Part shown: one piece after another, positions 1 through 45,703 of the stretch
Position numbering within the stretch: position 1 is the first letter of the stretch
How the letters are laid out: each line of letters opens with the position of its first letter
Virus record (IMG/VR): IMGVR_UViG_2687453424_000001
Origin: a virus
Taxonomy: Duplodnaviria; Heunggongvirae; Uroviricota; Caudoviricetes
DNA length: 64,000 bases
Strand: one strand, 5' to 3'
The notes under the pieces: generated by a model
Database searches by the model: none
The model's input: the letters and a program-made list of their open reading frames with translations, nothing else
Told to the model about the DNA's origin: nothing
Translations under genes and position numbers: made by a program

Positions 1-576
1 AGACCATCGAAAGAGTTAGGTTTTAATTCGTACGGATTCGAAATTGATTTACGTATGTTTACGTCTAAATTCGTTATTTTTTAGTATAAATATATTATAT
101 ATACATATTTATCATGAAATCAAATATCGGTATATATCTCTTGATTGTATTGAATTTTATCCACGTGGAGCTGTCGTTAACGTTTTAAAATATCCAAGGC
201 AACTAATCTGGATGGTATTTAATTTGTTTAAAAATTGACATCCCCAATTTCGAAGAAAGAGCGATGTTGTCGCCTGTTGTACTGCCCCAATGGTGGTTCA
301 CATTGTCATTATTATATGCTAATGGACATCTTGGGTTGGTTGTTTTCGATATACTACTTTAAGCAAAAGCTGTATATAGCCCATGTGATGGAAATTCATA
401 TAAAGAAAATTAATAGGTGTGAGGGAAAACATGGAACTCATTGCAGCTTCATTTTCCAACTAAATTCAAACCAAACCAAACCACAATTATTCAGTCCAAA
501 TTATCAAGTGGGGGCAGCATTTTTCTTGGTATCTTCTCGTGGCAATTCATTGTCTGCCTAACTTGAAAAATCTGAA

Positions 577-8800: not shown

Positions 8801-10181
8801 NNNNNNNNNNNNNNNNNNNNNNNNNNNNNNNNNNNNNNNNNNNNNNNNNNNNNNNNNNNNNNNNNNNNNNNNNNNNNNNNNNNNNNNNNNNNNNNNNNNN
8901 NNNNNNNNNNNNNNNNNNNNNNNNNNNNNNNNNNNNNNNNNNNNNNNNNNNNNNNNNNNNNNNNNNNNNNNNNNNNNNNNNNNNNNNNNNNNNNNNNNNN
9001 NNNNNNNNNNNNNNNNNNNNNNNNNNNNNNNNNNNNNNNNNNNNNNNNNNNNNNNNNNNNNNNNNNNNNNNNNNNNNNNNNNNNNNNNNNNNNNNNNNNN
9101 NNNNNNNNNNNNNNNNNNNNNNNNNNNNNNNNNNNNNNNNNNNNNNNNNNNNNNNNNNNNNNNNNNNNNNNNNNNNNNNNNNNNNNNNNNNNNNNNNNNN
9201 NNNNNNNNNNNNNNNNNNNNNNNNNNNNNNNNNNNNNNNNNNNNNNNNNNNNNNNNNNNNNNNNNNNNNNNNNNNNNNNNNNNNNNNNNNNNNNNNNNNN
9301 NNNNNNNNNNNNNNNNNNNNNNNNNNNNNNNNNNNNNNNNNNNNNNNNNNNNNNNNNNNNNNNNNNNNNNNNNNNNNNNNNNNNNNNNNNNNNNNNNNNN
9401 NNNNNNNNNNNNNNNNNNNNNNNNNNNNNNNNNNNNNNNNNNNNNNNNNNNNNNNNNNNNNNNNNNNNNNNNNNNNNNNNNNNNNNNNNNNNNNNNNNNN
9501 NNNNNNNNNNNNNNNNNNNNNNNNNNNNNNNNNNNNNNNNNNNNNNNNNNNNNNNNNNNNNNNNNNNNNNNNNNNNNNNNNNNNNNNNNNNNNNNNNNNN
9601 NNNNNNNNNNNNNNNNNNNNNNNNNNNNNNNNNNNNNNNNNNNNNNNNNNNNNNNNNNNNNNNNNNNNNNNNNNNNNNNNNNNNNNNNNNNNNNNNNNNN
9701 NNNNNNNNNNNNNNNNNNNNNNNNNNNNNNNNNNNNNNNNNNNNNNNNNNNNNNNNNNNNNNNNNNNNNNNNNNNNNNNNNNNNNNNNNNNNNNNNNNNN
9801 NNNNNNNNNNNNNNNNNNNNNNNNNNNNNNNNNNNNNNNNNNNNNNNNNNNNNNNNNNNNNNNNNNNNNNNNNNNNNNNNNNNNNNNNNNNNNNNNNNNN
9901 NNNNNNNNNNNNNNNNNNNNNNNNNNNNNNNNNNNNNNNNNNNNNNNNNNNNNNNNNNNNNNNNNNNNNNNNNNNNNNNNNNNNNNNNNNNNNNNNNNNN
10001 NNNNNNNNNNNNNNNNNNNNNNNNNNNNNNNNNNNNNNNNNNNNNNNNNNNNNNNNNNNNNNNNNNNNNNNNNNNNNNNNNNNNNNNNNNNNNNNNNNNN
10101 NNNNNNNNNNNNNNNNNNNNNNNNNNNNNNNNNNNNNNNNNNNNNNNNNNNNNNNNNNNNNNNNNNNNNNNNNNNNNNNNN
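5813..10181. other. assembly gap (N run, 4369 bp)
   Basis: Uninterrupted N. Confidence 1.
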
Positions 10182-17733: not shown

Positions 17734-20700
17734 NNNNNNNNNNNNNNNNNNNNNNNNNNNNNNNNNNNNNNNNNNNNNNNNNNNNNNNNNNNNNNNNNNN
17801 NNNNNNNNNNNNNNNNNNNNNNNNNNNNNNNNNNNNNNNNNNNNNNNNNNNNNNNNNNNNNNNNNNNNNNNNNNNNNNNNNNNNNNNNNNNNNNNNNNNN
17901 NNNNNNNNNNNNNNNNNNNNNNNNNNNNNNNNNNNNNNNNNNNNNNNNNNNNNNNNNNNNNNNNNNNNNNNNNNNNNNNNNNNNNNNNNNNNNNNNNNNN
18001 NNNNNNNNNNNNNNNNNNNNNNNNNNNNNNNNNNNNNNNNNNNNNNNNNNNNNNNNNNNNNNNNNNNNNNNNNNNNNNNNNNNNNNNNNNNNNNNNNNNN
18101 NNNNNNNNNNNNNNNNNNNNNNNNNNNNNNNNNNNNNNNNNNNNNNNNNNNNNNNNNNNNNNNNNNNNNNNNNNNNNNNNNNNNNNNNNNNNNNNNNNNN
18201 NNNNNNNNNNNNNNNNNNNNNNNNNNNNNNNNNNNNNNNNNNNNNNNNNNNNNNNNNNNNNNNNNNNNNNNNNNNNNNNNNNNNNNNNNNNNNNNNNNNN
18301 NNNNNNNNNNNNNNNNNNNNNNNNNNNNNNNNNNNNNNNNNNNNNNNNNNNNNNNNNNNNNNNNNNNNNNNNNNNNNNNNNNNNNNNNNNNNNNNNNNNN
18401 NNNNNNNNNNNNNNNNNNNNNNNNNNNNNNNNNNNNNNNNNNNNNNNNNNNNNNNNNNNNNNNNNNNNNNNNNNNNNNNNNNNNNNNNNNNNNNNNNNNN
18501 NNNNNNNNNNNNNNNNNNNNNNNNNNNNNNNNNNNNNNNNNNNNNNNNNNNNNNNNNNNNNNNNNNNNNNNNNNNNNNNNNNNNNNNNNNNNNNNNNNNN
18601 NNNNNNNNNNNNNNNNNNNNNNNNNNNNNNNNNNNNNNNNNNNNNNNNNNNNNNNNNNNNNNNNNNNNNNNNNNNNNNNNNNNNNNNNNNNNNNNNNNNN
18701 NNNNNNNNNNNNNNNNNNNNNNNNNNNNNNNNNNNNNNNNNNNNNNNNNNNNNNNNNNNNNNNNNNNNNNNNNNNNNNNNNNNNNNNNNNNNNNNNNNNN
18801 NNNNNNNNNNNNNNNNNNNNNNNNNNNNNNNNNNNNNNNNNNNNNNNNNNNNNNNNNNNNNNNNNNNNNNNNNNNNNNNNNNNNNNNNNNNNNNNNNNNN
18901 NNNNNNNNNNNNNNNNNNNNNNNNNNNNNNNNNNNNNNNNNNNNNNNNNNNNNNNNNNNNNNNNNNNNNNNNNNNNNNNNNNNNNNNNNNNNNNNNNNNN
19001 NNNNNNNNNNNNNNNNNNNNNNNNNNNNNNNNNNNNNNNNNNNNNNNNNNNNNNNNNNNNNNNNNNNNNNNNNNNNNNNNNNNNNNNNNNNNNNNNNNNN
19101 NNNNNNNNNNNNNNNNNNNNNNNNNNNNNNNNNNNNNNNNNNNNNNNNNNNNNNNNNNNNNNNNNNNNNNNNNNNNNNNNNNNNNNNNNNNNNNNNNNNN
19201 NNNNNNNNNNNNNNNNNNNNNNNNNNNNNNNNNNNNNNNNNNNNNNNNNNNNNNNNNNNNNNNNNNNNNNNNNNNNNNNNNNNNNNNNNNNNNNNNNNNN
19301 NNNNNNNNNNNNNNNNNNNNNNNNNNNNNNNNNNNNNNNNNNNNNNNNNNNNNNNNNNNNNNNNNNNNNNNNNNNNNNNNNNNNNNNNNNNNNNNNNNNN
19401 NNNNNNNNNNNNNNNNNNNNNNNNNNNNNNNNNNNNNNNNNNNNNNNNNNNNNNNNNNNNNNNNNNNNNNNNNNNNNNNNNNNNNNNNNNNNNNNNNNNN
19501 NNNNNNNNNNNNNNNNNNNNNNNNNNNNNNNNNNNNNNNNNNNNNNNNNNNNNNNNNNNNNNNNNNNNNNNNNNNNNNNNNNNNNNNNNNNNNNNNNNNN
19601 NNNNNNNNNNNNNNNNNNNNNNNNNNNNNNNNNNNNNNNNNNNNNNNNNNNNNNNNNNNNNNNNNNNNNNNNNNNNNNNNNNNNNNNNNNNNNNNNNNNN
19701 NNNNNNNNNNNNNNNNNNNNNNNNNNNNNNNNNNNNNNNNNNNNNNNNNNNNNNNNNNNNNNNNNNNNNNNNNNNNNNNNNNNNNNNNNNNNNNNNNNNN
19801 NNNNNNNNNNNNNNNNNNNNNNNNNNNNNNNNNNNNNNNNNNNNNNNNNNNNNNNNNNNNNNNNNNNNNNNNNNNNNNNNNNNNNNNNNNNNNNNNNNNN
19901 NNNNNNNNNNNNNNNNNNNNNNNNNNNNNNNNNNNNNNNNNNNNNNNNNNNNNNNNNNNNNNNNNNNNNNNNNNNNNNNNNNNNNNNNNNNNNNNNNNNN
20001 NNNNNNNNNNNNNNNNNNNNNNNNNNNNNNNNNNNNNNNNNNNNNNNNNNNNNNNNNNNNNNNNNNNNNNNNNNNNNNNNNNNNNNNNNNNNNNNNNNNN
20101 NNNNNNNNNNNNNNNNNNNNNNNNNNNNNNNNNNNNNNNNNNNNNNNNNNNNNNNNNNNNNNNNNNNNNNNNNNNNNNNNNNNNNNNNNNNNNNNNNNNN
20201 NNNNNNNNNNNNNNNNNNNNNNNNNNNNNNNNNNNNNNNNNNNNNNNNNNNNNNNNNNNNNNNNNNNNNNNNNNNNNNNNNNNNNNNNNNNNNNNNNNNN
20301 NNNNNNNNNNNNNNNNNNNNNNNNNNNNNNNNNNNNNNNNNNNNNNNNNNNNNNNNNNNNNNNNNNNNNNNNNNNNNNNNNNNNNNNNNNNNNNNNNNNN
20401 NNNNNNNNNNNNNNNNNNNNNNNNNNNNNNNNNNNNNNNNNNNNNNNNNNNNNNNNNNNNNNNNNNNNNNNNNNNNNNNNNNNNNNNNNNNNNNNNNNNN
20501 NNNNNNNNNNNNNNNNNNNNNNNNNNNNNNNNNNNNNNNNNNNNNNNNNNNNNNNNNNNNNNNNNNNNNNNNNNNNNNNNNNNNNNNNNNNNNNNNNNNN
20601 NNNNNNNNNNNNNNNNNNNNNNNNNNNNNNNNNNNNNNNNNNNNNNNNNNNNNNNNNNNNNNNNNNNNNNNNNNNNNNNNNNNNNNNNNNNNNNNNNNNN

Positions 20701-22537
20701 NNNNNNNNNNNNNNNNNNNNNNNNNNNNNNNNNNNNNNNNNNNNNNNNNNNNNNNNNNNNNNNNNNNNNNNNNNNNNNNNNNNNNNNNNNNNNNNNNNNN
20801 NNNNNNNNNNNNNNNNNNNNNNNNNNNNNNNNNNNNNNNNNNNNNNNNNNNNNNNNNNNNNNNNNNNNNNNNNNNNNNNNNNNNNNNNNNNNNNNNNNNN
20901 NNNNNNNNNNNNNNNNNNNNNNNNNNNNNNNNNNNNNNNNNNNNNNNNNNNNNNNNNNNNNNNNNNNNNNNNNNNNNNNNNNNNNNNNNNNNNNNNNNNN
21001 NNNNNNNNNNNNNNNNNNNNNNNNNNNNNNNNNNNNNNNNNNNNNNNNNNNNNNNNNNNNNNNNNNNNNNNNNNNNNNNNNNNNNNNNNNNNNNNNNNNN
21101 NNNNNNNNNNNNNNNNNNNNNNNNNNNNNNNNNNNNNNNNNNNNNNNNNNNNNNNNNNNNNNNNNNNNNNNNNNNNNNNNNNNNNNNNNNNNNNNNNNNN
21201 NNNNNNNNNNNNNNNNNNNNNNNNNNNNNNNNNNNNNNNNNNNNNNNNNNNNNNNNNNNNNNNNNNNNNNNNNNNNNNNNNNNNNNNNNNNNNNNNNNNN
21301 NNNNNNNNNNNNNNNNNNNNNNNNNNNNNNNNNNNNNNNNNNNNNNNNNNNNNNNNNNNNNNNNNNNNNNNNNNNNNNNNNNNNNNNNNNNNNNNNNNNN
21401 NNNNNNNNNNNNNNNNNNNNNNNNNNNNNNNNNNNNNNNNNNNNNNNNNNNNNNNNNNNNNNNNNNNNNNNNNNNNNNNNNNNNNNNNNNNNNNNNNNNN
21501 NNNNNNNNNNNNNNNNNNNNNNNNNNNNNNNNNNNNNNNNNNNNNNNNNNNNNNNNNNNNNNNNNNNNNNNNNNNNNNNNNNNNNNNNNNNNNNNNNNNN
21601 NNNNNNNNNNNNNNNNNNNNNNNNNNNNNNNNNNNNNNNNNNNNNNNNNNNNNNNNNNNNNNNNNNNNNNNNNNNNNNNNNNNNNNNNNNNNNNNNNNNN
21701 NNNNNNNNNNNNNNNNNNNNNNNNNNNNNNNNNNNNNNNNNNNNNNNNNNNNNNNNNNNNNNNNNNNNNNNNNNNNNNNNNNNNNNNNNNNNNNNNNNNN
21801 NNNNNNNNNNNNNNNNNNNNNNNNNNNNNNNNNNNNNNNNNNNNNNNNNNNNNNNNNNNNNNNNNNNNNNNNNNNNNNNNNNNNNNNNNNNNNNNNNNNN
21901 NNNNNNNNNNNNNNNNNNNNNNNNNNNNNNNNNNNNNNNNNNNNNNNNNNNNNNNNNNNNNNNNNNNNNNNNNNNNNNNNNNNNNNNNNNNNNNNNNNNN
22001 NNNNNNNNNNNNNNNNNNNNNNNNNNNNNNNNNNNNNNNNNNNNNNNNNNNNNNNNNNNNNNNNNNNNNNNNNNNNNNNNNNNNNNNNNNNNNNNNNNNN
22101 NNNNNNNNNNNNNNNNNNNNNNNNNNNNNNNNNNNNNNNNNNNNNNNNNNNNNNNNNNNNNNNNNNNNNNNNNNNNNNNNNNNNNNNNNNNNNNNNNNNN
22201 NNNNNNNNNNNNNNNNNNNNNNNNNNNNNNNNNNNNNNNNNNNNNNNNNNNNNNNNNNNNNNNNNNNNNNNNNNNNNNNNNNNNNNNNNNNNNNNNNNNN
22301 NNNNNNNNNNNNNNNNNNNNNNNNNNNNNNNNNNNNNNNNNNNNNNNNNNNNNNNNNNNNNNNNNNNNNNNNNNNNNNNNNNNNNNNNNNNNNNNNNNNN
22401 NNNNNNNNNNNNNNNNNNNNNNNNNNNNNNNNNNNNNNNNNNNNNNNNNNNNNNNNNNNNNNNNNNNNNNNNNNNNNNNNNNNNNNNNNNNNNNNNNNNN
22501 NNNNNNNNNNNNNNNNNNNNNNNNNNNNNNNNNNNNN
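17734..22537. other. assembly gap (N run, 4804 bp)
   Basis: Uninterrupted N. Confidence 1.
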
Positions 22538-27900: not shown

Positions 27901-28050
27901 CTACTCGTTCCCCAAGTTCAGAGAACCATCCTTCATCAGCTTCATGCTTAGACTGTTGAATCTCCCTCTTGAGTAATGTCGAGAAGCCTTTCTCCAATCT
28001 GTACCAGTTTTCATCATGGCTGTGAATTCATCATAGCTGATGCGTCCATC
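27901..28050 (-). CDS. CPK13: calcium-dependent protein kinase (CPK13-like); exon 7 of 7 (includes stop)
   Basis: Translation [49 protein letters not shown], containing EF-hand 4 ([12 protein letters not shown] across the exon 6/7 junction). Acceptor tgtaaatgcag|GATGGACGC. TAG stop at 27901-27903. Confidence 0.9.
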
Positions 28051-28130: not shown

Positions 28131-28361
28131 CTTGTCTGTGTCCACTTCTTGGAAGATGTCATTTGCAACATTAGTACAATCATCTGCTCCATCCTCCATT
28201 AATGAATCCCGAAGCTCATCAGGCTCAATGTAACCATTGCCATCTTTGTCAAAATAGGAAAAGGCCTTTCGAAGATGCTCATCATTGGCTATTCTTTGAA
28301 GATGGAGAGATACAGCAAGAAATTCCCCATAGTCCAATGTTCCTTTCCCATTAGCATCAAC
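28131..28361 (-). CDS. CPK13: calcium-dependent protein kinase (CPK13-like); exon 6 of 7
   Basis: Translation VDANGKGTLDYGEFLAVSLHLQRIANDEHLRKAFSYFDKDGNGYIEPDELRDSLMEDGADDCTNVANDIFQEVDTDK, carrying EF-hands 2 and 3. Acceptor caacag|GTTGATGC and donor GACAAG|gtgatgac. Confidence 0.9.
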
Positions 28362-29374: not shown

Positions 29375-29542
29375 AGCTTCAATAAGCATCTGCACTTCAG
29401 ACTCTGCAAGGTGCGAACCAAAATTTCTAAATCCAGCTTTCAGCTCTTCAATTGAAACGATGCCATCATTGTCAGTGTCCATTTTCTTGAACATTTCTTT
29501 GATGTCTTCAACTTCTTCAATGGATAAGAACTCAGCAATAAC
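29375..29542 (-). CDS. CPK13: calcium-dependent protein kinase (CPK13-like); exon 5 of 7
   Basis: Translation VIAEFLSIEEVEDIKEMFKKMDTDNDGIVSIEELKAGFRNFGSHLAESEVQMLIEA, carrying EF-hand 1. Acceptor aattag|GTTATTGC and donor GAAGCT|gtgagtgt. Confidence 0.9.
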
Positions 29543-29628: not shown

Positions 29629-29744
29629 CCGCAGGGCTTTTCTTTTGAATCTGTTCATCATTGAAAATTGTTTAAGCCTTGACTTAACAACATCGCCAAG
29701 AGGAACATTGGGAGCTTTTTTAGCATTTTGGAGCCAAGGATGCT
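29629..29744 (-). CDS. CPK13: calcium-dependent protein kinase (CPK13-like); exon 4 of 7
   Basis: Translation (E)[38 protein letters not shown], the CDPK junction/autoinhibitory region. Acceptor cacag|AGCATCC and donor CTGCGG|gttggt. Confidence 0.9.
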
Positions 29745-30034
29745 CTGTGAGAAGAGGCAACACACAGATTAGGCAAACTATCACTAGTTATTAACATTTA
29801 ATGGAGCAAATTAGTAACATAGGTCTTTGTACAATTTTGAAGTAAACTGGGAAAGCTGATATTAAGAAGGTTTTATATCTTATATTTGAAGGTGTAGAAA
29901 AAGCCTATCAGAAGATCAAATAGAATCATCAAAGGCTATGACTACACGCCTACGCACCCCCAGTCCCCATCCAGCTCCCTCCCATGAAACATACACAAGT
30001 TCACCTAGGCATAGCACAGAGGAAATTTTACTAC

Positions 30035-30187
30035 CAAGCACTTGCTTTGCAGTGAGACGAAGCTTTGGGTCCGGTTCCAACATTTGCCTGACTAGACTCT
30101 TAGCACTCTCTGAAATATTTGGCCATGGGTCCCGTTTGAAATCTATTAACCCTCGAAGAATTGCCTGTGCAACACCTTGTTCAGACT
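30035..30187 (-). CDS. CPK13: calcium-dependent protein kinase (CPK13-like); exon 3 of 7
   Basis: Translation (E)[50 protein letters not shown]. Acceptor gatgcag|AGTCTG and donor GTGCTTG|gtagta. Phase 1 in and out. Confidence 0.9.
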
Positions 30188-30245: not shown

Positions 30246-30470
<225 letters not shown>

Positions 30471-31932
30471 TTACAAATTATAGGCATTAAAACATAATAT
30501 TAAAAAAAAACACACAATCTACATAATAGAAGGAAACGTGGTCAAACTCTAAGTACGCAGACCTTATCCTACTTATCATAATATGTTCCATCCTTACTAT
30601 TTCATATCCCCACCAGTGTCCCCATAACACATCCAACCCAACCACACAGTTTTTGTGAACAAAACTGGGAAATTATTGATCAGACAGAGATAATTAGGCA
30701 GAAACTTTTTAGCACATGAAACCTTGGACTTATGGCTCCTGCTATACCAGTTTCCTGGAAATGCAAGTATTAAAAGAATTGATACAAGCAAACTCAGCCC
30801 CATCTTGAGTTATAGAACATGAAAATCTTCAAAAAACCTGAAGCAGACAGAACCTTTATAGCATACTAAACAATTACAAAAATTGGACCATTCATCGGGG
30901 GCAAGGAAAATCTACTTTATTTGAGACACATCCACTATAAGGCTAACCACTGCAGTACCCATGACAGCTCACGAAAAGGAAGCAGGAAACTTGTATCCAT
31001 TCAATAAAGCTATAGTTCAGAGTTTCCCTAGTGTGACCATGCAAGATAACTTTAAGAGAAAATTCTTGTCACAAACATAACTGAGCATCACCATTGTACT
31101 GACAACTCAATGGCCATTGGTGAATGGATCAGTATGAAGAAAAAATTGAAGATTAAAAATCAGATAAAGAGCAGCAATTACCATATCTAAAACTTATAAT
31201 GTTTCATCCTCAATTTGAGGTAAGTAATCAGTATTATAGATTTAAACCATGGAGAAAGATATATACAATATTCTTTTTTAGGAGAAGAAAAGAGAAAATC
31301 AAAAGACTCCAAAGTGTTCAACTGTGACAGATAATGAAAAAGAAAATACATAAACAAATAATAAAACAAACCTACCAGACTTGCAAGAAAAAAAGTAAGC
31401 TTCCACCTTCCACAATAAGAGGAAAGGAACCAATAGTGATTCAAGTTGTAAAAGCACAGACAAAGTACATGAAAAATTGTTGTTAGCAAGGCTGAAACAT
31501 GCGCAACCACATTCCTCTGTTCGTTCATTTCAGGCAATATAAGTGCCTAGTAACATTGCTTCAAAGGGATTGGACCTACTACAGTAGCTCATAAAAGCTA
31601 CCTTAAAGCATAGGCATAGCCAAATAAAATTAACCAAAGTGCGTATTTCGTCACTACAAAAACCATAAACAAACAAATAAACAGATAAATGCACAAAGGG
31701 TACACCACATCGGCATGTCCAATCCCACAAACTTAGATCATTCTTTCATGCACTTTTTCTTCAGGGTCAAATGTTTTCGTGACAAAATCAGAACCCAGCT
31801 TGGCAAAATACAATCTTTGCTGCATAATTAAATACTTCTAACCAAGCATTATCACTCATAATTCGAACTAAAGATGGTACATTCTTGAAAAGGCACTCAG
31901 TTATTTATACATTCAAACTTTGAACAATTTAC

Positions 31933-32548
31933 CTGGCTTGAAAAATATTGATAACCCAAAATCGATAGCTTTTAACGGCGAATTCTCTTTCTTATTAGCG
32001 AACAAAAAATTCTCAGGCTTCAAATCTCTATGAATCACTCCATGCTTATGACAAAGCTGAACCACTTCCACAATCGTCCTCGTCACCGCCGCGGCGGCTC
32101 TCTCCGTGTAATGTCCTCTGGCCACGATCCTATCGAAGAGTTCACCACCTTCACAAAGCTCCATCACCAAATGAACCGCATTGTCATCCTCGCAAGCTTC
32201 TTTCAAGCTCACGATACTCGAATTCTTCGGCAAATGCTTCATTATCGCAACTTCCCGTCTCACATCCTCGATATCCACGGCCGTCCTCAGCTTCCTCTTC
32301 GAGATAGACTTGCACGCGAGCAACTCGCGCGTGCCGCGGTCGATGCAAAGGTAAGTAACCCCGAACTCACCTCGTCCCAGCTCGCGATCCACCAGGTACT
32401 TCTCCTCGATGTTCTCCTTCGGAACCCCGTTCAGCACCGTGATCGGCGGCTTCTGCTTGGAAACGGAATCTTTACGGGCGTGATCGTGTGCGGAGAAGTT
32501 CGATTTTACGTCCTCCCTCGCGACAGCCGCTGGAGATCTACAACAATT
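31933..32548 (-). CDS. CPK13: calcium-dependent protein kinase (CPK13-like); exon 1 of 7, 5'-truncated by the adjacent gap (MG of MGNCC is inside the N run)
   Basis: Translation [68 protein letters not shown]...[33 protein letters not shown](G). This has the Ser/Thr kinase catalytic motifs ([11 protein letters not shown]) and closely matches the Arabidopsis CPK13 N-terminus [17 protein letters not shown] as I recall it. Donor AAGCCAG|gtaaat at 31932/31933. Confidence 0.9.
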
Positions 32549-35500
32549 NNNNNNNNNNNNNNNNNNNNNNNNNNNNNNNNNNNNNNNNNNNNNNNNNNNN
32601 NNNNNNNNNNNNNNNNNNNNNNNNNNNNNNNNNNNNNNNNNNNNNNNNNNNNNNNNNNNNNNNNNNNNNNNNNNNNNNNNNNNNNNNNNNNNNNNNNNNN
32701 NNNNNNNNNNNNNNNNNNNNNNNNNNNNNNNNNNNNNNNNNNNNNNNNNNNNNNNNNNNNNNNNNNNNNNNNNNNNNNNNNNNNNNNNNNNNNNNNNNNN
32801 NNNNNNNNNNNNNNNNNNNNNNNNNNNNNNNNNNNNNNNNNNNNNNNNNNNNNNNNNNNNNNNNNNNNNNNNNNNNNNNNNNNNNNNNNNNNNNNNNNNN
32901 NNNNNNNNNNNNNNNNNNNNNNNNNNNNNNNNNNNNNNNNNNNNNNNNNNNNNNNNNNNNNNNNNNNNNNNNNNNNNNNNNNNNNNNNNNNNNNNNNNNN
33001 NNNNNNNNNNNNNNNNNNNNNNNNNNNNNNNNNNNNNNNNNNNNNNNNNNNNNNNNNNNNNNNNNNNNNNNNNNNNNNNNNNNNNNNNNNNNNNNNNNNN
33101 NNNNNNNNNNNNNNNNNNNNNNNNNNNNNNNNNNNNNNNNNNNNNNNNNNNNNNNNNNNNNNNNNNNNNNNNNNNNNNNNNNNNNNNNNNNNNNNNNNNN
33201 NNNNNNNNNNNNNNNNNNNNNNNNNNNNNNNNNNNNNNNNNNNNNNNNNNNNNNNNNNNNNNNNNNNNNNNNNNNNNNNNNNNNNNNNNNNNNNNNNNNN
33301 NNNNNNNNNNNNNNNNNNNNNNNNNNNNNNNNNNNNNNNNNNNNNNNNNNNNNNNNNNNNNNNNNNNNNNNNNNNNNNNNNNNNNNNNNNNNNNNNNNNN
33401 NNNNNNNNNNNNNNNNNNNNNNNNNNNNNNNNNNNNNNNNNNNNNNNNNNNNNNNNNNNNNNNNNNNNNNNNNNNNNNNNNNNNNNNNNNNNNNNNNNNN
33501 NNNNNNNNNNNNNNNNNNNNNNNNNNNNNNNNNNNNNNNNNNNNNNNNNNNNNNNNNNNNNNNNNNNNNNNNNNNNNNNNNNNNNNNNNNNNNNNNNNNN
33601 NNNNNNNNNNNNNNNNNNNNNNNNNNNNNNNNNNNNNNNNNNNNNNNNNNNNNNNNNNNNNNNNNNNNNNNNNNNNNNNNNNNNNNNNNNNNNNNNNNNN
33701 NNNNNNNNNNNNNNNNNNNNNNNNNNNNNNNNNNNNNNNNNNNNNNNNNNNNNNNNNNNNNNNNNNNNNNNNNNNNNNNNNNNNNNNNNNNNNNNNNNNN
33801 NNNNNNNNNNNNNNNNNNNNNNNNNNNNNNNNNNNNNNNNNNNNNNNNNNNNNNNNNNNNNNNNNNNNNNNNNNNNNNNNNNNNNNNNNNNNNNNNNNNN
33901 NNNNNNNNNNNNNNNNNNNNNNNNNNNNNNNNNNNNNNNNNNNNNNNNNNNNNNNNNNNNNNNNNNNNNNNNNNNNNNNNNNNNNNNNNNNNNNNNNNNN
34001 NNNNNNNNNNNNNNNNNNNNNNNNNNNNNNNNNNNNNNNNNNNNNNNNNNNNNNNNNNNNNNNNNNNNNNNNNNNNNNNNNNNNNNNNNNNNNNNNNNNN
34101 NNNNNNNNNNNNNNNNNNNNNNNNNNNNNNNNNNNNNNNNNNNNNNNNNNNNNNNNNNNNNNNNNNNNNNNNNNNNNNNNNNNNNNNNNNNNNNNNNNNN
34201 NNNNNNNNNNNNNNNNNNNNNNNNNNNNNNNNNNNNNNNNNNNNNNNNNNNNNNNNNNNNNNNNNNNNNNNNNNNNNNNNNNNNNNNNNNNNNNNNNNNN
34301 NNNNNNNNNNNNNNNNNNNNNNNNNNNNNNNNNNNNNNNNNNNNNNNNNNNNNNNNNNNNNNNNNNNNNNNNNNNNNNNNNNNNNNNNNNNNNNNNNNNN
34401 NNNNNNNNNNNNNNNNNNNNNNNNNNNNNNNNNNNNNNNNNNNNNNNNNNNNNNNNNNNNNNNNNNNNNNNNNNNNNNNNNNNNNNNNNNNNNNNNNNNN
34501 NNNNNNNNNNNNNNNNNNNNNNNNNNNNNNNNNNNNNNNNNNNNNNNNNNNNNNNNNNNNNNNNNNNNNNNNNNNNNNNNNNNNNNNNNNNNNNNNNNNN
34601 NNNNNNNNNNNNNNNNNNNNNNNNNNNNNNNNNNNNNNNNNNNNNNNNNNNNNNNNNNNNNNNNNNNNNNNNNNNNNNNNNNNNNNNNNNNNNNNNNNNN
34701 NNNNNNNNNNNNNNNNNNNNNNNNNNNNNNNNNNNNNNNNNNNNNNNNNNNNNNNNNNNNNNNNNNNNNNNNNNNNNNNNNNNNNNNNNNNNNNNNNNNN
34801 NNNNNNNNNNNNNNNNNNNNNNNNNNNNNNNNNNNNNNNNNNNNNNNNNNNNNNNNNNNNNNNNNNNNNNNNNNNNNNNNNNNNNNNNNNNNNNNNNNNN
34901 NNNNNNNNNNNNNNNNNNNNNNNNNNNNNNNNNNNNNNNNNNNNNNNNNNNNNNNNNNNNNNNNNNNNNNNNNNNNNNNNNNNNNNNNNNNNNNNNNNNN
35001 NNNNNNNNNNNNNNNNNNNNNNNNNNNNNNNNNNNNNNNNNNNNNNNNNNNNNNNNNNNNNNNNNNNNNNNNNNNNNNNNNNNNNNNNNNNNNNNNNNNN
35101 NNNNNNNNNNNNNNNNNNNNNNNNNNNNNNNNNNNNNNNNNNNNNNNNNNNNNNNNNNNNNNNNNNNNNNNNNNNNNNNNNNNNNNNNNNNNNNNNNNNN
35201 NNNNNNNNNNNNNNNNNNNNNNNNNNNNNNNNNNNNNNNNNNNNNNNNNNNNNNNNNNNNNNNNNNNNNNNNNNNNNNNNNNNNNNNNNNNNNNNNNNNN
35301 NNNNNNNNNNNNNNNNNNNNNNNNNNNNNNNNNNNNNNNNNNNNNNNNNNNNNNNNNNNNNNNNNNNNNNNNNNNNNNNNNNNNNNNNNNNNNNNNNNNN
35401 NNNNNNNNNNNNNNNNNNNNNNNNNNNNNNNNNNNNNNNNNNNNNNNNNNNNNNNNNNNNNNNNNNNNNNNNNNNNNNNNNNNNNNNNNNNNNNNNNNNN

Positions 35501-37313
35501 NNNNNNNNNNNNNNNNNNNNNNNNNNNNNNNNNNNNNNNNNNNNNNNNNNNNNNNNNNNNNNNNNNNNNNNNNNNNNNNNNNNNNNNNNNNNNNNNNNNN
35601 NNNNNNNNNNNNNNNNNNNNNNNNNNNNNNNNNNNNNNNNNNNNNNNNNNNNNNNNNNNNNNNNNNNNNNNNNNNNNNNNNNNNNNNNNNNNNNNNNNNN
35701 NNNNNNNNNNNNNNNNNNNNNNNNNNNNNNNNNNNNNNNNNNNNNNNNNNNNNNNNNNNNNNNNNNNNNNNNNNNNNNNNNNNNNNNNNNNNNNNNNNNN
35801 NNNNNNNNNNNNNNNNNNNNNNNNNNNNNNNNNNNNNNNNNNNNNNNNNNNNNNNNNNNNNNNNNNNNNNNNNNNNNNNNNNNNNNNNNNNNNNNNNNNN
35901 NNNNNNNNNNNNNNNNNNNNNNNNNNNNNNNNNNNNNNNNNNNNNNNNNNNNNNNNNNNNNNNNNNNNNNNNNNNNNNNNNNNNNNNNNNNNNNNNNNNN
36001 NNNNNNNNNNNNNNNNNNNNNNNNNNNNNNNNNNNNNNNNNNNNNNNNNNNNNNNNNNNNNNNNNNNNNNNNNNNNNNNNNNNNNNNNNNNNNNNNNNNN
36101 NNNNNNNNNNNNNNNNNNNNNNNNNNNNNNNNNNNNNNNNNNNNNNNNNNNNNNNNNNNNNNNNNNNNNNNNNNNNNNNNNNNNNNNNNNNNNNNNNNNN
36201 NNNNNNNNNNNNNNNNNNNNNNNNNNNNNNNNNNNNNNNNNNNNNNNNNNNNNNNNNNNNNNNNNNNNNNNNNNNNNNNNNNNNNNNNNNNNNNNNNNNN
36301 NNNNNNNNNNNNNNNNNNNNNNNNNNNNNNNNNNNNNNNNNNNNNNNNNNNNNNNNNNNNNNNNNNNNNNNNNNNNNNNNNNNNNNNNNNNNNNNNNNNN
36401 NNNNNNNNNNNNNNNNNNNNNNNNNNNNNNNNNNNNNNNNNNNNNNNNNNNNNNNNNNNNNNNNNNNNNNNNNNNNNNNNNNNNNNNNNNNNNNNNNNNN
36501 NNNNNNNNNNNNNNNNNNNNNNNNNNNNNNNNNNNNNNNNNNNNNNNNNNNNNNNNNNNNNNNNNNNNNNNNNNNNNNNNNNNNNNNNNNNNNNNNNNNN
36601 NNNNNNNNNNNNNNNNNNNNNNNNNNNNNNNNNNNNNNNNNNNNNNNNNNNNNNNNNNNNNNNNNNNNNNNNNNNNNNNNNNNNNNNNNNNNNNNNNNNN
36701 NNNNNNNNNNNNNNNNNNNNNNNNNNNNNNNNNNNNNNNNNNNNNNNNNNNNNNNNNNNNNNNNNNNNNNNNNNNNNNNNNNNNNNNNNNNNNNNNNNNN
36801 NNNNNNNNNNNNNNNNNNNNNNNNNNNNNNNNNNNNNNNNNNNNNNNNNNNNNNNNNNNNNNNNNNNNNNNNNNNNNNNNNNNNNNNNNNNNNNNNNNNN
36901 NNNNNNNNNNNNNNNNNNNNNNNNNNNNNNNNNNNNNNNNNNNNNNNNNNNNNNNNNNNNNNNNNNNNNNNNNNNNNNNNNNNNNNNNNNNNNNNNNNNN
37001 NNNNNNNNNNNNNNNNNNNNNNNNNNNNNNNNNNNNNNNNNNNNNNNNNNNNNNNNNNNNNNNNNNNNNNNNNNNNNNNNNNNNNNNNNNNNNNNNNNNN
37101 NNNNNNNNNNNNNNNNNNNNNNNNNNNNNNNNNNNNNNNNNNNNNNNNNNNNNNNNNNNNNNNNNNNNNNNNNNNNNNNNNNNNNNNNNNNNNNNNNNNN
37201 NNNNNNNNNNNNNNNNNNNNNNNNNNNNNNNNNNNNNNNNNNNNNNNNNNNNNNNNNNNNNNNNNNNNNNNNNNNNNNNNNNNNNNNNNNNNNNNNNNNN
37301 NNNNNNNNNNNNN
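32549..37313. other. assembly gap (N run, 4765 bp)
   Basis: Uninterrupted N. It hides the CPK start codon and proximal promoter. Confidence 1.
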
Positions 37314-37329
37314 TAATTTAATTTAATTT

Positions 37330-37500
37330 TAATTTATTTTTTTTAAAGCGTGGATGTTCTTTGATTCTGTGAACTTTGTCGGCTAATCGAAGAGAGAGAA
37401 ACGGAAACGGGACGGTGGAGTGGGAAAAGAGACGGAGCGCTGAAGGTTGGTGGGGATTGGTTGAGTGTTTTGCGTTATACCGGGGGATTGTGCGCATTTT
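37330..37500 (-). other. candidate non-coding 5' leader exon of the CPK gene (hypothesis)
   Basis: Minus strand reads ctctcttttcccactccaccgtcccgtttccgtttctctctcttcgattagccgacaaag, a pyrimidine-rich block typical of plant 5'-UTRs, directly across the gap from the CPK start and flanked by AT-rich DNA. No splice site is verifiable because of the gap. Confidence 0.25.
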
Positions 37501-38405: not shown

Positions 38406-39563
38406 NNNNNNNNNNNNNNNNNNNNNNNNNNNNNNNNNNNNNNNNNNNNNNNNNNNNNNNNNNNNNNNNNNNNNNNNNNNNNNNNNNNNNNNNNNNNNNN
38501 NNNNNNNNNNNNNNNNNNNNNNNNNNNNNNNNNNNNNNNNNNNNNNNNNNNNNNNNNNNNNNNNNNNNNNNNNNNNNNNNNNNNNNNNNNNNNNNNNNNN
38601 NNNNNNNNNNNNNNNNNNNNNNNNNNNNNNNNNNNNNNNNNNNNNNNNNNNNNNNNNNNNNNNNNNNNNNNNNNNNNNNNNNNNNNNNNNNNNNNNNNNN
38701 NNNNNNNNNNNNNNNNNNNNNNNNNNNNNNNNNNNNNNNNNNNNNNNNNNNNNNNNNNNNNNNNNNNNNNNNNNNNNNNNNNNNNNNNNNNNNNNNNNNN
38801 NNNNNNNNNNNNNNNNNNNNNNNNNNNNNNNNNNNNNNNNNNNNNNNNNNNNNNNNNNNNNNNNNNNNNNNNNNNNNNNNNNNNNNNNNNNNNNNNNNNN
38901 NNNNNNNNNNNNNNNNNNNNNNNNNNNNNNNNNNNNNNNNNNNNNNNNNNNNNNNNNNNNNNNNNNNNNNNNNNNNNNNNNNNNNNNNNNNNNNNNNNNN
39001 NNNNNNNNNNNNNNNNNNNNNNNNNNNNNNNNNNNNNNNNNNNNNNNNNNNNNNNNNNNNNNNNNNNNNNNNNNNNNNNNNNNNNNNNNNNNNNNNNNNN
39101 NNNNNNNNNNNNNNNNNNNNNNNNNNNNNNNNNNNNNNNNNNNNNNNNNNNNNNNNNNNNNNNNNNNNNNNNNNNNNNNNNNNNNNNNNNNNNNNNNNNN
39201 NNNNNNNNNNNNNNNNNNNNNNNNNNNNNNNNNNNNNNNNNNNNNNNNNNNNNNNNNNNNNNNNNNNNNNNNNNNNNNNNNNNNNNNNNNNNNNNNNNNN
39301 NNNNNNNNNNNNNNNNNNNNNNNNNNNNNNNNNNNNNNNNNNNNNNNNNNNNNNNNNNNNNNNNNNNNNNNNNNNNNNNNNNNNNNNNNNNNNNNNNNNN
39401 NNNNNNNNNNNNNNNNNNNNNNNNNNNNNNNNNNNNNNNNNNNNNNNNNNNNNNNNNNNNNNNNNNNNNNNNNNNNNNNNNNNNNNNNNNNNNNNNNNNN
39501 NNNNNNNNNNNNNNNNNNNNNNNNNNNNNNNNNNNNNNNNNNNNNNNNNNNNNNNNNNNNNNN
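38406..39563. other. assembly gap (N run, 1158 bp)
   Basis: Uninterrupted N. Confidence 1.
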
Positions 39564-41066: not shown

Positions 41067-44000
41067 NNNNNNNNNNNNNNNNNNNNNNNNNNNNNNNNNN
41101 NNNNNNNNNNNNNNNNNNNNNNNNNNNNNNNNNNNNNNNNNNNNNNNNNNNNNNNNNNNNNNNNNNNNNNNNNNNNNNNNNNNNNNNNNNNNNNNNNNNN
41201 NNNNNNNNNNNNNNNNNNNNNNNNNNNNNNNNNNNNNNNNNNNNNNNNNNNNNNNNNNNNNNNNNNNNNNNNNNNNNNNNNNNNNNNNNNNNNNNNNNNN
41301 NNNNNNNNNNNNNNNNNNNNNNNNNNNNNNNNNNNNNNNNNNNNNNNNNNNNNNNNNNNNNNNNNNNNNNNNNNNNNNNNNNNNNNNNNNNNNNNNNNNN
41401 NNNNNNNNNNNNNNNNNNNNNNNNNNNNNNNNNNNNNNNNNNNNNNNNNNNNNNNNNNNNNNNNNNNNNNNNNNNNNNNNNNNNNNNNNNNNNNNNNNNN
41501 NNNNNNNNNNNNNNNNNNNNNNNNNNNNNNNNNNNNNNNNNNNNNNNNNNNNNNNNNNNNNNNNNNNNNNNNNNNNNNNNNNNNNNNNNNNNNNNNNNNN
41601 NNNNNNNNNNNNNNNNNNNNNNNNNNNNNNNNNNNNNNNNNNNNNNNNNNNNNNNNNNNNNNNNNNNNNNNNNNNNNNNNNNNNNNNNNNNNNNNNNNNN
41701 NNNNNNNNNNNNNNNNNNNNNNNNNNNNNNNNNNNNNNNNNNNNNNNNNNNNNNNNNNNNNNNNNNNNNNNNNNNNNNNNNNNNNNNNNNNNNNNNNNNN
41801 NNNNNNNNNNNNNNNNNNNNNNNNNNNNNNNNNNNNNNNNNNNNNNNNNNNNNNNNNNNNNNNNNNNNNNNNNNNNNNNNNNNNNNNNNNNNNNNNNNNN
41901 NNNNNNNNNNNNNNNNNNNNNNNNNNNNNNNNNNNNNNNNNNNNNNNNNNNNNNNNNNNNNNNNNNNNNNNNNNNNNNNNNNNNNNNNNNNNNNNNNNNN
42001 NNNNNNNNNNNNNNNNNNNNNNNNNNNNNNNNNNNNNNNNNNNNNNNNNNNNNNNNNNNNNNNNNNNNNNNNNNNNNNNNNNNNNNNNNNNNNNNNNNNN
42101 NNNNNNNNNNNNNNNNNNNNNNNNNNNNNNNNNNNNNNNNNNNNNNNNNNNNNNNNNNNNNNNNNNNNNNNNNNNNNNNNNNNNNNNNNNNNNNNNNNNN
42201 NNNNNNNNNNNNNNNNNNNNNNNNNNNNNNNNNNNNNNNNNNNNNNNNNNNNNNNNNNNNNNNNNNNNNNNNNNNNNNNNNNNNNNNNNNNNNNNNNNNN
42301 NNNNNNNNNNNNNNNNNNNNNNNNNNNNNNNNNNNNNNNNNNNNNNNNNNNNNNNNNNNNNNNNNNNNNNNNNNNNNNNNNNNNNNNNNNNNNNNNNNNN
42401 NNNNNNNNNNNNNNNNNNNNNNNNNNNNNNNNNNNNNNNNNNNNNNNNNNNNNNNNNNNNNNNNNNNNNNNNNNNNNNNNNNNNNNNNNNNNNNNNNNNN
42501 NNNNNNNNNNNNNNNNNNNNNNNNNNNNNNNNNNNNNNNNNNNNNNNNNNNNNNNNNNNNNNNNNNNNNNNNNNNNNNNNNNNNNNNNNNNNNNNNNNNN
42601 NNNNNNNNNNNNNNNNNNNNNNNNNNNNNNNNNNNNNNNNNNNNNNNNNNNNNNNNNNNNNNNNNNNNNNNNNNNNNNNNNNNNNNNNNNNNNNNNNNNN
42701 NNNNNNNNNNNNNNNNNNNNNNNNNNNNNNNNNNNNNNNNNNNNNNNNNNNNNNNNNNNNNNNNNNNNNNNNNNNNNNNNNNNNNNNNNNNNNNNNNNNN
42801 NNNNNNNNNNNNNNNNNNNNNNNNNNNNNNNNNNNNNNNNNNNNNNNNNNNNNNNNNNNNNNNNNNNNNNNNNNNNNNNNNNNNNNNNNNNNNNNNNNNN
42901 NNNNNNNNNNNNNNNNNNNNNNNNNNNNNNNNNNNNNNNNNNNNNNNNNNNNNNNNNNNNNNNNNNNNNNNNNNNNNNNNNNNNNNNNNNNNNNNNNNNN
43001 NNNNNNNNNNNNNNNNNNNNNNNNNNNNNNNNNNNNNNNNNNNNNNNNNNNNNNNNNNNNNNNNNNNNNNNNNNNNNNNNNNNNNNNNNNNNNNNNNNNN
43101 NNNNNNNNNNNNNNNNNNNNNNNNNNNNNNNNNNNNNNNNNNNNNNNNNNNNNNNNNNNNNNNNNNNNNNNNNNNNNNNNNNNNNNNNNNNNNNNNNNNN
43201 NNNNNNNNNNNNNNNNNNNNNNNNNNNNNNNNNNNNNNNNNNNNNNNNNNNNNNNNNNNNNNNNNNNNNNNNNNNNNNNNNNNNNNNNNNNNNNNNNNNN
43301 NNNNNNNNNNNNNNNNNNNNNNNNNNNNNNNNNNNNNNNNNNNNNNNNNNNNNNNNNNNNNNNNNNNNNNNNNNNNNNNNNNNNNNNNNNNNNNNNNNNN
43401 NNNNNNNNNNNNNNNNNNNNNNNNNNNNNNNNNNNNNNNNNNNNNNNNNNNNNNNNNNNNNNNNNNNNNNNNNNNNNNNNNNNNNNNNNNNNNNNNNNNN
43501 NNNNNNNNNNNNNNNNNNNNNNNNNNNNNNNNNNNNNNNNNNNNNNNNNNNNNNNNNNNNNNNNNNNNNNNNNNNNNNNNNNNNNNNNNNNNNNNNNNNN
43601 NNNNNNNNNNNNNNNNNNNNNNNNNNNNNNNNNNNNNNNNNNNNNNNNNNNNNNNNNNNNNNNNNNNNNNNNNNNNNNNNNNNNNNNNNNNNNNNNNNNN
43701 NNNNNNNNNNNNNNNNNNNNNNNNNNNNNNNNNNNNNNNNNNNNNNNNNNNNNNNNNNNNNNNNNNNNNNNNNNNNNNNNNNNNNNNNNNNNNNNNNNNN
43801 NNNNNNNNNNNNNNNNNNNNNNNNNNNNNNNNNNNNNNNNNNNNNNNNNNNNNNNNNNNNNNNNNNNNNNNNNNNNNNNNNNNNNNNNNNNNNNNNNNNN
43901 NNNNNNNNNNNNNNNNNNNNNNNNNNNNNNNNNNNNNNNNNNNNNNNNNNNNNNNNNNNNNNNNNNNNNNNNNNNNNNNNNNNNNNNNNNNNNNNNNNNN

Positions 44001-45703
44001 NNNNNNNNNNNNNNNNNNNNNNNNNNNNNNNNNNNNNNNNNNNNNNNNNNNNNNNNNNNNNNNNNNNNNNNNNNNNNNNNNNNNNNNNNNNNNNNNNNNN
44101 NNNNNNNNNNNNNNNNNNNNNNNNNNNNNNNNNNNNNNNNNNNNNNNNNNNNNNNNNNNNNNNNNNNNNNNNNNNNNNNNNNNNNNNNNNNNNNNNNNNN
44201 NNNNNNNNNNNNNNNNNNNNNNNNNNNNNNNNNNNNNNNNNNNNNNNNNNNNNNNNNNNNNNNNNNNNNNNNNNNNNNNNNNNNNNNNNNNNNNNNNNNN
44301 NNNNNNNNNNNNNNNNNNNNNNNNNNNNNNNNNNNNNNNNNNNNNNNNNNNNNNNNNNNNNNNNNNNNNNNNNNNNNNNNNNNNNNNNNNNNNNNNNNNN
44401 NNNNNNNNNNNNNNNNNNNNNNNNNNNNNNNNNNNNNNNNNNNNNNNNNNNNNNNNNNNNNNNNNNNNNNNNNNNNNNNNNNNNNNNNNNNNNNNNNNNN
44501 NNNNNNNNNNNNNNNNNNNNNNNNNNNNNNNNNNNNNNNNNNNNNNNNNNNNNNNNNNNNNNNNNNNNNNNNNNNNNNNNNNNNNNNNNNNNNNNNNNNN
44601 NNNNNNNNNNNNNNNNNNNNNNNNNNNNNNNNNNNNNNNNNNNNNNNNNNNNNNNNNNNNNNNNNNNNNNNNNNNNNNNNNNNNNNNNNNNNNNNNNNNN
44701 NNNNNNNNNNNNNNNNNNNNNNNNNNNNNNNNNNNNNNNNNNNNNNNNNNNNNNNNNNNNNNNNNNNNNNNNNNNNNNNNNNNNNNNNNNNNNNNNNNNN
44801 NNNNNNNNNNNNNNNNNNNNNNNNNNNNNNNNNNNNNNNNNNNNNNNNNNNNNNNNNNNNNNNNNNNNNNNNNNNNNNNNNNNNNNNNNNNNNNNNNNNN
44901 NNNNNNNNNNNNNNNNNNNNNNNNNNNNNNNNNNNNNNNNNNNNNNNNNNNNNNNNNNNNNNNNNNNNNNNNNNNNNNNNNNNNNNNNNNNNNNNNNNNN
45001 NNNNNNNNNNNNNNNNNNNNNNNNNNNNNNNNNNNNNNNNNNNNNNNNNNNNNNNNNNNNNNNNNNNNNNNNNNNNNNNNNNNNNNNNNNNNNNNNNNNN
45101 NNNNNNNNNNNNNNNNNNNNNNNNNNNNNNNNNNNNNNNNNNNNNNNNNNNNNNNNNNNNNNNNNNNNNNNNNNNNNNNNNNNNNNNNNNNNNNNNNNNN
45201 NNNNNNNNNNNNNNNNNNNNNNNNNNNNNNNNNNNNNNNNNNNNNNNNNNNNNNNNNNNNNNNNNNNNNNNNNNNNNNNNNNNNNNNNNNNNNNNNNNNN
45301 NNNNNNNNNNNNNNNNNNNNNNNNNNNNNNNNNNNNNNNNNNNNNNNNNNNNNNNNNNNNNNNNNNNNNNNNNNNNNNNNNNNNNNNNNNNNNNNNNNNN
45401 NNNNNNNNNNNNNNNNNNNNNNNNNNNNNNNNNNNNNNNNNNNNNNNNNNNNNNNNNNNNNNNNNNNNNNNNNNNNNNNNNNNNNNNNNNNNNNNNNNNN
45501 NNNNNNNNNNNNNNNNNNNNNNNNNNNNNNNNNNNNNNNNNNNNNNNNNNNNNNNNNNNNNNNNNNNNNNNNNNNNNNNNNNNNNNNNNNNNNNNNNNNN
45601 NNNNNNNNNNNNNNNNNNNNNNNNNNNNNNNNNNNNNNNNNNNNNNNNNNNNNNNNNNNNNNNNNNNNNNNNNNNNNNNNNNNNNNNNNNNNNNNNNNNN
45701 NNN
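41067..45703. other. assembly gap (N run, 4637 bp)
   Basis: Uninterrupted N. Confidence 1.

Follow-up and report, generated by a model that had tools for sequence, protein, structure and literature searches.

The 64,000-nucleotide stretch IMGVR_UViG_2687453424_000001 (the "window") carries on its minus strand a gene that its sequence identifies as CPK13 of Theobroma cacao, orthologous to the Arabidopsis calcium-dependent protein kinase (CDPK) of that name, a member of subgroup III. The coding sequence enters a run of 4,765 N at its 5′ end, and in two gapless cacao assemblies this run corresponds to only 336 bp. A first-pass annotation, made from the letters of the window, had suggested that the gap might be part of a large intron in the 5′ untranslated region (5′-UTR), with a possible leader exon on its far side; that intron is refuted, and what suggested it is an assembly artefact. 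Taken as a whole, we consider it highly probable that the gene is cacao CPK13 with a gap of 336 bp and an unspliced first exon, and that a conserved C-rich block just beyond the gap is the proximal promoter, the 5′ part of the first exon, or both.

A 336-bp gap at the start of cacao CPK13

N makes up 44% of the window, in seven runs, and the seven-exon coding sequence meets the run at 32549-37313 at Asn3. From 32548 the minus strand reads AAT TGT TGT AGA TCT CCA GCG GCT GTC, in agreement with the NCCRSPAAV reported by the first-pass annotation, and the frame is open for 616 nt, to 31933, with a GT donor at 31932. The list of open reading frames (ORFs) instead begins its ORF (31913..32437) at a "M" which, as had been pointed out, is a GTG codon, the Val of ITVLNG. 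All eight of the closest homologs fetched share an 18-residue start of the MGNCC type, N-terminal in seven, while homolog P0007 has a 24-residue extension upstream of it. Because the homologs carry this start, the missing ATG GGN should be the first 6 nt inside the N run, as had been proposed. Both gapless T. cacao assemblies have exactly this arrangement: ...GTGAA ATGGGG, then directly AATTGTTGT, the coding-side edge of the gap, whose far-side edge is AAATTAAATTA.

With MG added, the window translation is a protein of 527 residues identical to T. cacao "Calcium-dependent protein kinase 13 isoform 2" (EOY07185.1/KAK6290648.1), and the DNA of that locus (chromosome records CM001883.1, at 765,812-790,466, and CM072262.1, at 40,571,091-40,595,745) is 99.6-99.9% identical to the window. 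The gene is already known, and its correct model is in public annotation; set beside the T. cacao reference records, the window assembly is short of 336 bp, among them the start codon, and has 4,765 N instead. Arabidopsis CPK13 (At3g51850, CDPKD_ARATH), the comparison that had been suggested earlier, is 89% identical over its full length and has the same 18-residue start and seven coding exons. The top 120 full-length matches have identities of 73-97%, and most of those with a name are called CPK13, a few "CPK7". Searched on its own, exon 1 matches proteins named "calcium-dependent protein kinase 13" from Malvaceae with 95-96% identity, against only 69% for a protein named as CPK32-like.

The protein has the domains of a CDPK: a Ser/Thr kinase domain at residues 54-311 (Pfam PF00069 Pkinase, E = 4.8e-76), a 22-residue autoinhibitory junction that aligns with that of AtCPK13, and EF hands between residues about 354 and 494, which Pfam detects as EF-hand_7 pairs in two stretches and EF-hand_1 in three. 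The Gly2/Cys4-Cys5 acylation motif MGNCC is also present, with NCC visible in the window and MG supplied by the gapless assemblies. By orthology, the product is probably a membrane-targeted CDPK, with acylation at MGNCC expected from the family. In PMC6387338, with reference to Ronzier et al. 2014, Arabidopsis CPK13 is described as weakly calcium-sensitive, as inhibiting the K+ channels KAT1/KAT2 and GORK, and as reducing light-induced stomatal opening.

The length of the gap follows from alignment of its flanks to two gapless cacao loci, L001 (GCA_036851155.1) and L002 (Matina, GCA_000403535.1, an independent assembly). L001 8577-9670 corresponds to window 38405-37314 at 99.8% identity and L001 10007-20022 to window 32548-22538 at 99.9%, and L002 gives the same coordinates. 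The 336 bp between them, identical in the two loci, consist of about 330 nt of leader and ATGGGG, so that the N run is 14 times too long. Nor is this run alone: all four of the testable N runs in the window are oversized, by about 4 to 18 times, which makes the excess length a systematic error of gap sizing instead of a biological feature and argues against four insertions. The missing sequence is of low complexity (it has (CT)13 and extended A/T and G runs), and we attribute its loss from the assembly to this content.

The N run could have its correct length only if the accession that was sequenced carried, in its CPK13 leader, roughly 4.4 kb of inserted DNA such as a transposon, absent from both reference assemblies. 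We think this very unlikely. Nothing speaks for it directly; what it sets against a 336-bp gap is that the N's by themselves are compatible with a genuine insertion in the source genotype. Against it stand the four oversized runs, with 1.2-4.8 kb of N for 264-336 bp, and the low complexity of the missing piece, which is typical of sequencing drop-out.

Ortholog leaders and the C-rich block

Spliced ortholog mRNA contigs were compared with their own genomic DNA in the Gossypium A and D genomes and in Arabidopsis. The D04 contigs L008 (304-nt leader) and L009 (194 nt) are collinear with genomic L005, the A04 contigs L013 (257 nt) and L014 (113 nt) with genomic L010, and the At3g51850 contigs L024 (219 nt) and L025 (228 nt) with genomic L016. 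In all six, the first alignment block is unbroken from the 5′ end of the contig to the end of exon 1, and the coding introns have all been removed. No 5′-UTR intron was found in these Gossypium and Arabidopsis CPK13 contigs, over leaders of up to 304 nt. Two more spliced mRNA contigs, from two further species, have longer leaders (L015, 405 nt; L026, 478 nt), in which a homolog of the C-rich block leads directly into the remainder of the leader, with the order of the cacao genome preserved. L015 58-219 matches L001 9574-9715 (E = 4e-11) and L026 49-307 matches L001 9514-9774 (E = 2e-9), each in a single collinear match which crosses the distal gap edge at 9670/9671.

These comparisons contradict the first-pass model, in which 37330-37500 on the minus strand forms a non-coding leader exon of its own and the gap is spanned by a 5′-UTR intron of several kb. 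It had some appeal: leader introns are widespread among plant genes, the block is conserved and rich in C and T, and the N run is drawn at 4.8 kb. The likeness to such genes is superficial, however, since the several kb that separate block and coding sequence in this assembly are an artefact of the N run, and the ortholog mRNA leaders are unspliced. Two assemblies put the real distance at 336 bp, the Gossypium and Arabidopsis mRNAs follow their genomes over 219-304 nt of leader, and L015 and L026 run from the block straight into the downstream leader in genomic order. Inspection by eye of the cacao-Gossypium alignments A1 and A2, which is not a splice-site scan, also revealed no conserved GT/AG pair. 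The model is now barely credible: since the N-run length is wrong, the large intron and the separate leader exon are both artefacts. One candidate acceptor was considered separately, at the first bases of L008, which lie beside TTTTTTTAAG in the D-genome copy; it was rejected, as the A-genome copy has AAGGATTAT there and is collinear with the contig, and as the cacao sequence lacks an AG at this position.

The block itself is real. Pyrimidines make up 58% of the minus strand at 37330-37500, with C at 35% and G at 10.5%, where the non-N window background is 34% G+C, and its core (37401-37450) is 78% pyrimidine and 48% C. The first-pass annotation had called this region pyrimidine-rich and UTR-like; "C-rich" fits the composition better, whereas "UTR-like" is fair, given the long mRNA leaders of two other species that contain its homolog. 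In the real sequence it is continuous with the gene, 347-517 bp upstream of the ATG, and the apparent long distance to the coding sequence comes from the gap having been written as 4,765 N. The block has a conserved counterpart upstream of both Gossypium homoeologs (L001 9389-9704 versus L005 691-1055, E = 5e-30), and on this comparison we judge it to be more than a compositional accident. Within it, AGCCGACAA (37384-37376, minus strand) is invariant in cacao, both Gossypium homoeologs, and the two mRNA leaders of other species (alignment A3), and CCGTCCCGTT (37415-37406, minus strand) is largely conserved too. AGCCGACAA contains GCCGAC, which agrees with RCCGAC, the known consensus of the dehydration-responsive element/C-repeat (DRE/CRT), and may thus be a DREB site. 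The block was also considered as a known RNA and rejected as such: Rfam returned a single sub-threshold match, which lies elsewhere (15.4 bits versus a 35.6-bit cut-off), and no tRNA was found in the sequence searched.

Where transcription begins can be approached through the 5′ ends of the ortholog contigs. The two Arabidopsis contigs, which are independent, start at most 9 nt apart, just after the homologous AAATATCAAAAAC motif; they and Gossypium L013 start near the ATCAAAAG motif, and L027, a shorter contig from the same species as L026, starts at it. The ends thus form two classes, one at the ATATCAAAAG motif, about -230 to -260 (L027, L013, L025), and one at least 405-478 nt upstream that includes the C-rich block (L015, L026). 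This hints at two clusters of transcription starts in CPK13 genes, or else at assembly breaks in the A/T-rich spacer.

On the reading that we prefer, the first exon is unspliced from its 5′ end through the ATG, and a TATA-driven proximal start probably lies within the 336 bp of hidden sequence, so that the leader measures about 290 nt. For this start the C-rich block would be the proximal promoter, and by analogy with the two species it would also be transcribed as the 5′ end of longer leaders from a distal start. The earlier claim that the promoter lies inside the gap is then half right: the TATA-like box and the likely proximal start are hidden there, while the conserved upstream region, and probably the distal start, are visible beyond it.

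A simpler arrangement, to which we give somewhat less than an even chance, is that the block is purely untranscribed proximal promoter, and cacao has a single start, which falls within the hidden 336 bp close to ATATCAAACGAC, about 25-35 nt past the TATA-like box, with the same unspliced leader of about 290 nt. The close agreement of the two Arabidopsis starts fits this, as do the starts of L013 and L027 at or near the homologous motif, the presence of TATATAAAAAAAA in cacao, a few tens of nt before the motif, and the absence of the block from the Gossypium mRNA contigs. It is harder to reconcile with L015 and L026, whose leaders contain the block homolog, and with L008, which starts upstream of the Gossypium TATA-like element; moreover, the ends of short-read contigs in A/T-rich DNA are poor markers of transcription starts.

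Several observations weigh against transcription of the block in cacao and against our placing of the starts. The cacao leader, used as an exact pattern in two scans of the metagenome collection, gave 0 matches, and the exact cacao protein is recorded only on genome assemblies; because no cacao transcript matched, the cacao starts are inferred from other species. The Gossypium mRNA contigs break off 200 bp before they reach the block, and no such block can be recognised upstream of CPK13 in Arabidopsis. Transcription of the block may be lineage-specific, or L015 and L026 may have been extended by unprocessed or contaminant reads.

Contents of the hidden leader

In order, the hidden 336 bp contain an A/T-rich stretch with TATATAAAAAAAA, then ATATCAAACGAC, (CT)13, CTGTAATGTGAAACCCTAGCTAAGC, G-rich tracts, and GTGAA-ATGGGG. 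The TATA-like TATATAAAAAAAA starts near L001 9680, and the ATATCAAACGAC motif is conserved, with several ortholog mRNA contigs beginning there. The Gossypium leader aligns over much of this region (L008 25-299 with L001 9696-9974, E = 3.5e-30; also alignments A1 and A2). In the Arabidopsis CPK13 leader, as in that of cacao, there is no splice, and a (CT)n tract and AATGTG-AACCCTAG are present.

The leader also contains a conserved minimal upstream open reading frame (uORF), ATG-TGA, with a telo-box-like AAACCCTAGCTAA and then a G-rich tract after it; an inverted TTAGGGTTT lies downstream of the mini-uORF and AAACCCTAGCTAA. ATGTGA or ATGTAA is found in cacao (L001 9859-9864), Gossypium, L003/L015, L004, L026-28, and L029-30, but not in Arabidopsis, where the upstream ATG (ATGTGG) opens a 10-codon uORF rather than an ATG-stop. 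Cacao, Gossypium, and four other transcript sets thus have the AUG-stop in common in their CPK13 leaders, often as ATGATGTRA, and the main ATG follows the mini-uORF/telo-box module at a distance of 60-142 nt. Pairing of the two telo-box-like arms into an RNA hairpin was considered and is unsupported: RNAalifold gave 8 pairs with no compensatory change and a covariation term of +0.37.

Two known systems bear a resemblance to this module. The AUG-stop minimal uORF (AUGUAA) of Arabidopsis NIP5;1 mediates boron-dependent ribosome stalling (PMC11915504), and telo-box and GAGA motifs are known Polycomb recruitment motifs (PMC7797069). The CPK13 leaders share with NIP5;1 an ATG directly followed by TGA or TAA; unlike NIP5;1, the stop is mostly TGA, Arabidopsis CPK13 has no immediate stop, and the likeness is one of sequence only. 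The conservation of the mini-uORF may equally reflect the adjoining telo-box-like DNA motif. We put forward only tentatively, as a rather unlikely proposal, that the rosid-conserved module of (CT)n, start-stop mini-uORF, AAACCCTAGCTAA, and inverted TTAGGGTTT is a real control element of CPK13 expression, which would act through start-stop stalling or through telo-box/GAGA-type chromatin recruitment.

Gene model, neighbouring sequence, and consequences

The exons were rebuilt from a tblastn guide and GT-AG boundaries; the guide was an Arabidopsis CPK13 sequence used for exon location only, and the identity figures use the database copy (P0257). The coding sequence runs from 32548 down to 27901, with 525 visible residues to a TAG stop and GT-AG boundaries at all introns, and the visible part of exon 1 covers the N-terminal variable domain and kinase subdomains I-VII. 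The annotated "isoform 1" of cacao CPK13 (554 residues) has 27 extra residues, inserted where the kinase domain ends, directly ahead of EHPWLQ, and may be a non-productive or mis-annotated isoform.

Table. Features of the CPK13 locus and oversized N runs (window coordinates unless a locus or contig is named).
Feature	Position	Strand	Basis or remark
Assembly gap, 4,765 N for 336 bp real (L001/L002 9671-10006)	32549..37313	.	flank alignment
N run, 4804 N for 264 bp	17734-22537		gapless assembly comparison
N run, 1158 N for 304 bp	38406-39563		gapless assembly comparison
N run, 4637 N for 325 bp	41067-45703		gapless assembly comparison
Conserved C-rich block, about 365-470 bp before ATG in real sequence	37344..37450	-	composition, conservation, mRNA contigs
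GCCGAC, DRE/CRT-like core inside AGCCGACAA	37378..37383	-	
A/T-rich stretch at far gap edge, continuing into gap to TATA-like TATATAAAAAAAA	37314..37343	-	
Hidden ATG GGG (Met1-Gly2) of CPK13 coding sequence	32549..32554	-	gapless assemblies and homologs
Exon 1, visible coding part, Asn3 to first base of codon 208	31933..32548	-	donor GTAAAT
Coding exon 2	30320..30463	-	acceptor CAG, donor GTAAGT
Coding exon 3	30035..30187	-	
81-nt exon 3 extension to alternative GT donor in intron 3	29954..30034	-	annotated "isoform 1"
Coding exon 4	29629..29744	-	donor GTTGGT
Coding exon 5, junction and first EF hand	29375..29542	-	
Coding exon 6, EF hands	28131..28361	-	
Coding exon 7, stop codon TAG at 27903-27901	27901..28050	-	
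Mini-uORF module	L001 9851-9895; L008 ~200-245; L015 ~317-365; L026 ~408-460; L004 ~29-60; L029 ~150-195		

Downstream of CPK13 the window has two direct copies of a sequence of ~1 kb, about 92% identical (25214-24191 and 17084-16099), candidates for a pair of long terminal repeats or a tandem duplication. Further sub-repeats, with 93-94% identity, are found between L001 20023-20847 and 21924-22430, and the N run at 17734-22537 lies between the two ~1 kb copies and adjoins these sub-repeats. In Gossypium, an Alfin/PHD-finger gene is convergent with CPK13, about 1.25 kb downstream (L005 7509-7762, L010 7517-7771); none was called within 10 kb downstream of CPK13 in the cacao loci.

The practical lesson concerns the assembly and not biology. 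Distances across gaps in this cacao assembly are unreliable, and gene models beside its gaps will be 5′-truncated or given false long introns; for CPK13, annotation from this assembly alone would be 5′-truncated, as the first-pass annotation had foreseen. Should the mini-uORF/telo-box module prove to be a true control element, it would be invisible to any analysis on this gapped assembly. As a mildly interesting by-product, the architecture of the CPK13 leader, with its (CT)n tract, start-stop uORF, telo-box-like pair, and upstream block with the invariant GCCGAC, could serve as a guide for work on the promoter or leader of a kinase that in Arabidopsis regulates K+ channels of guard cells.

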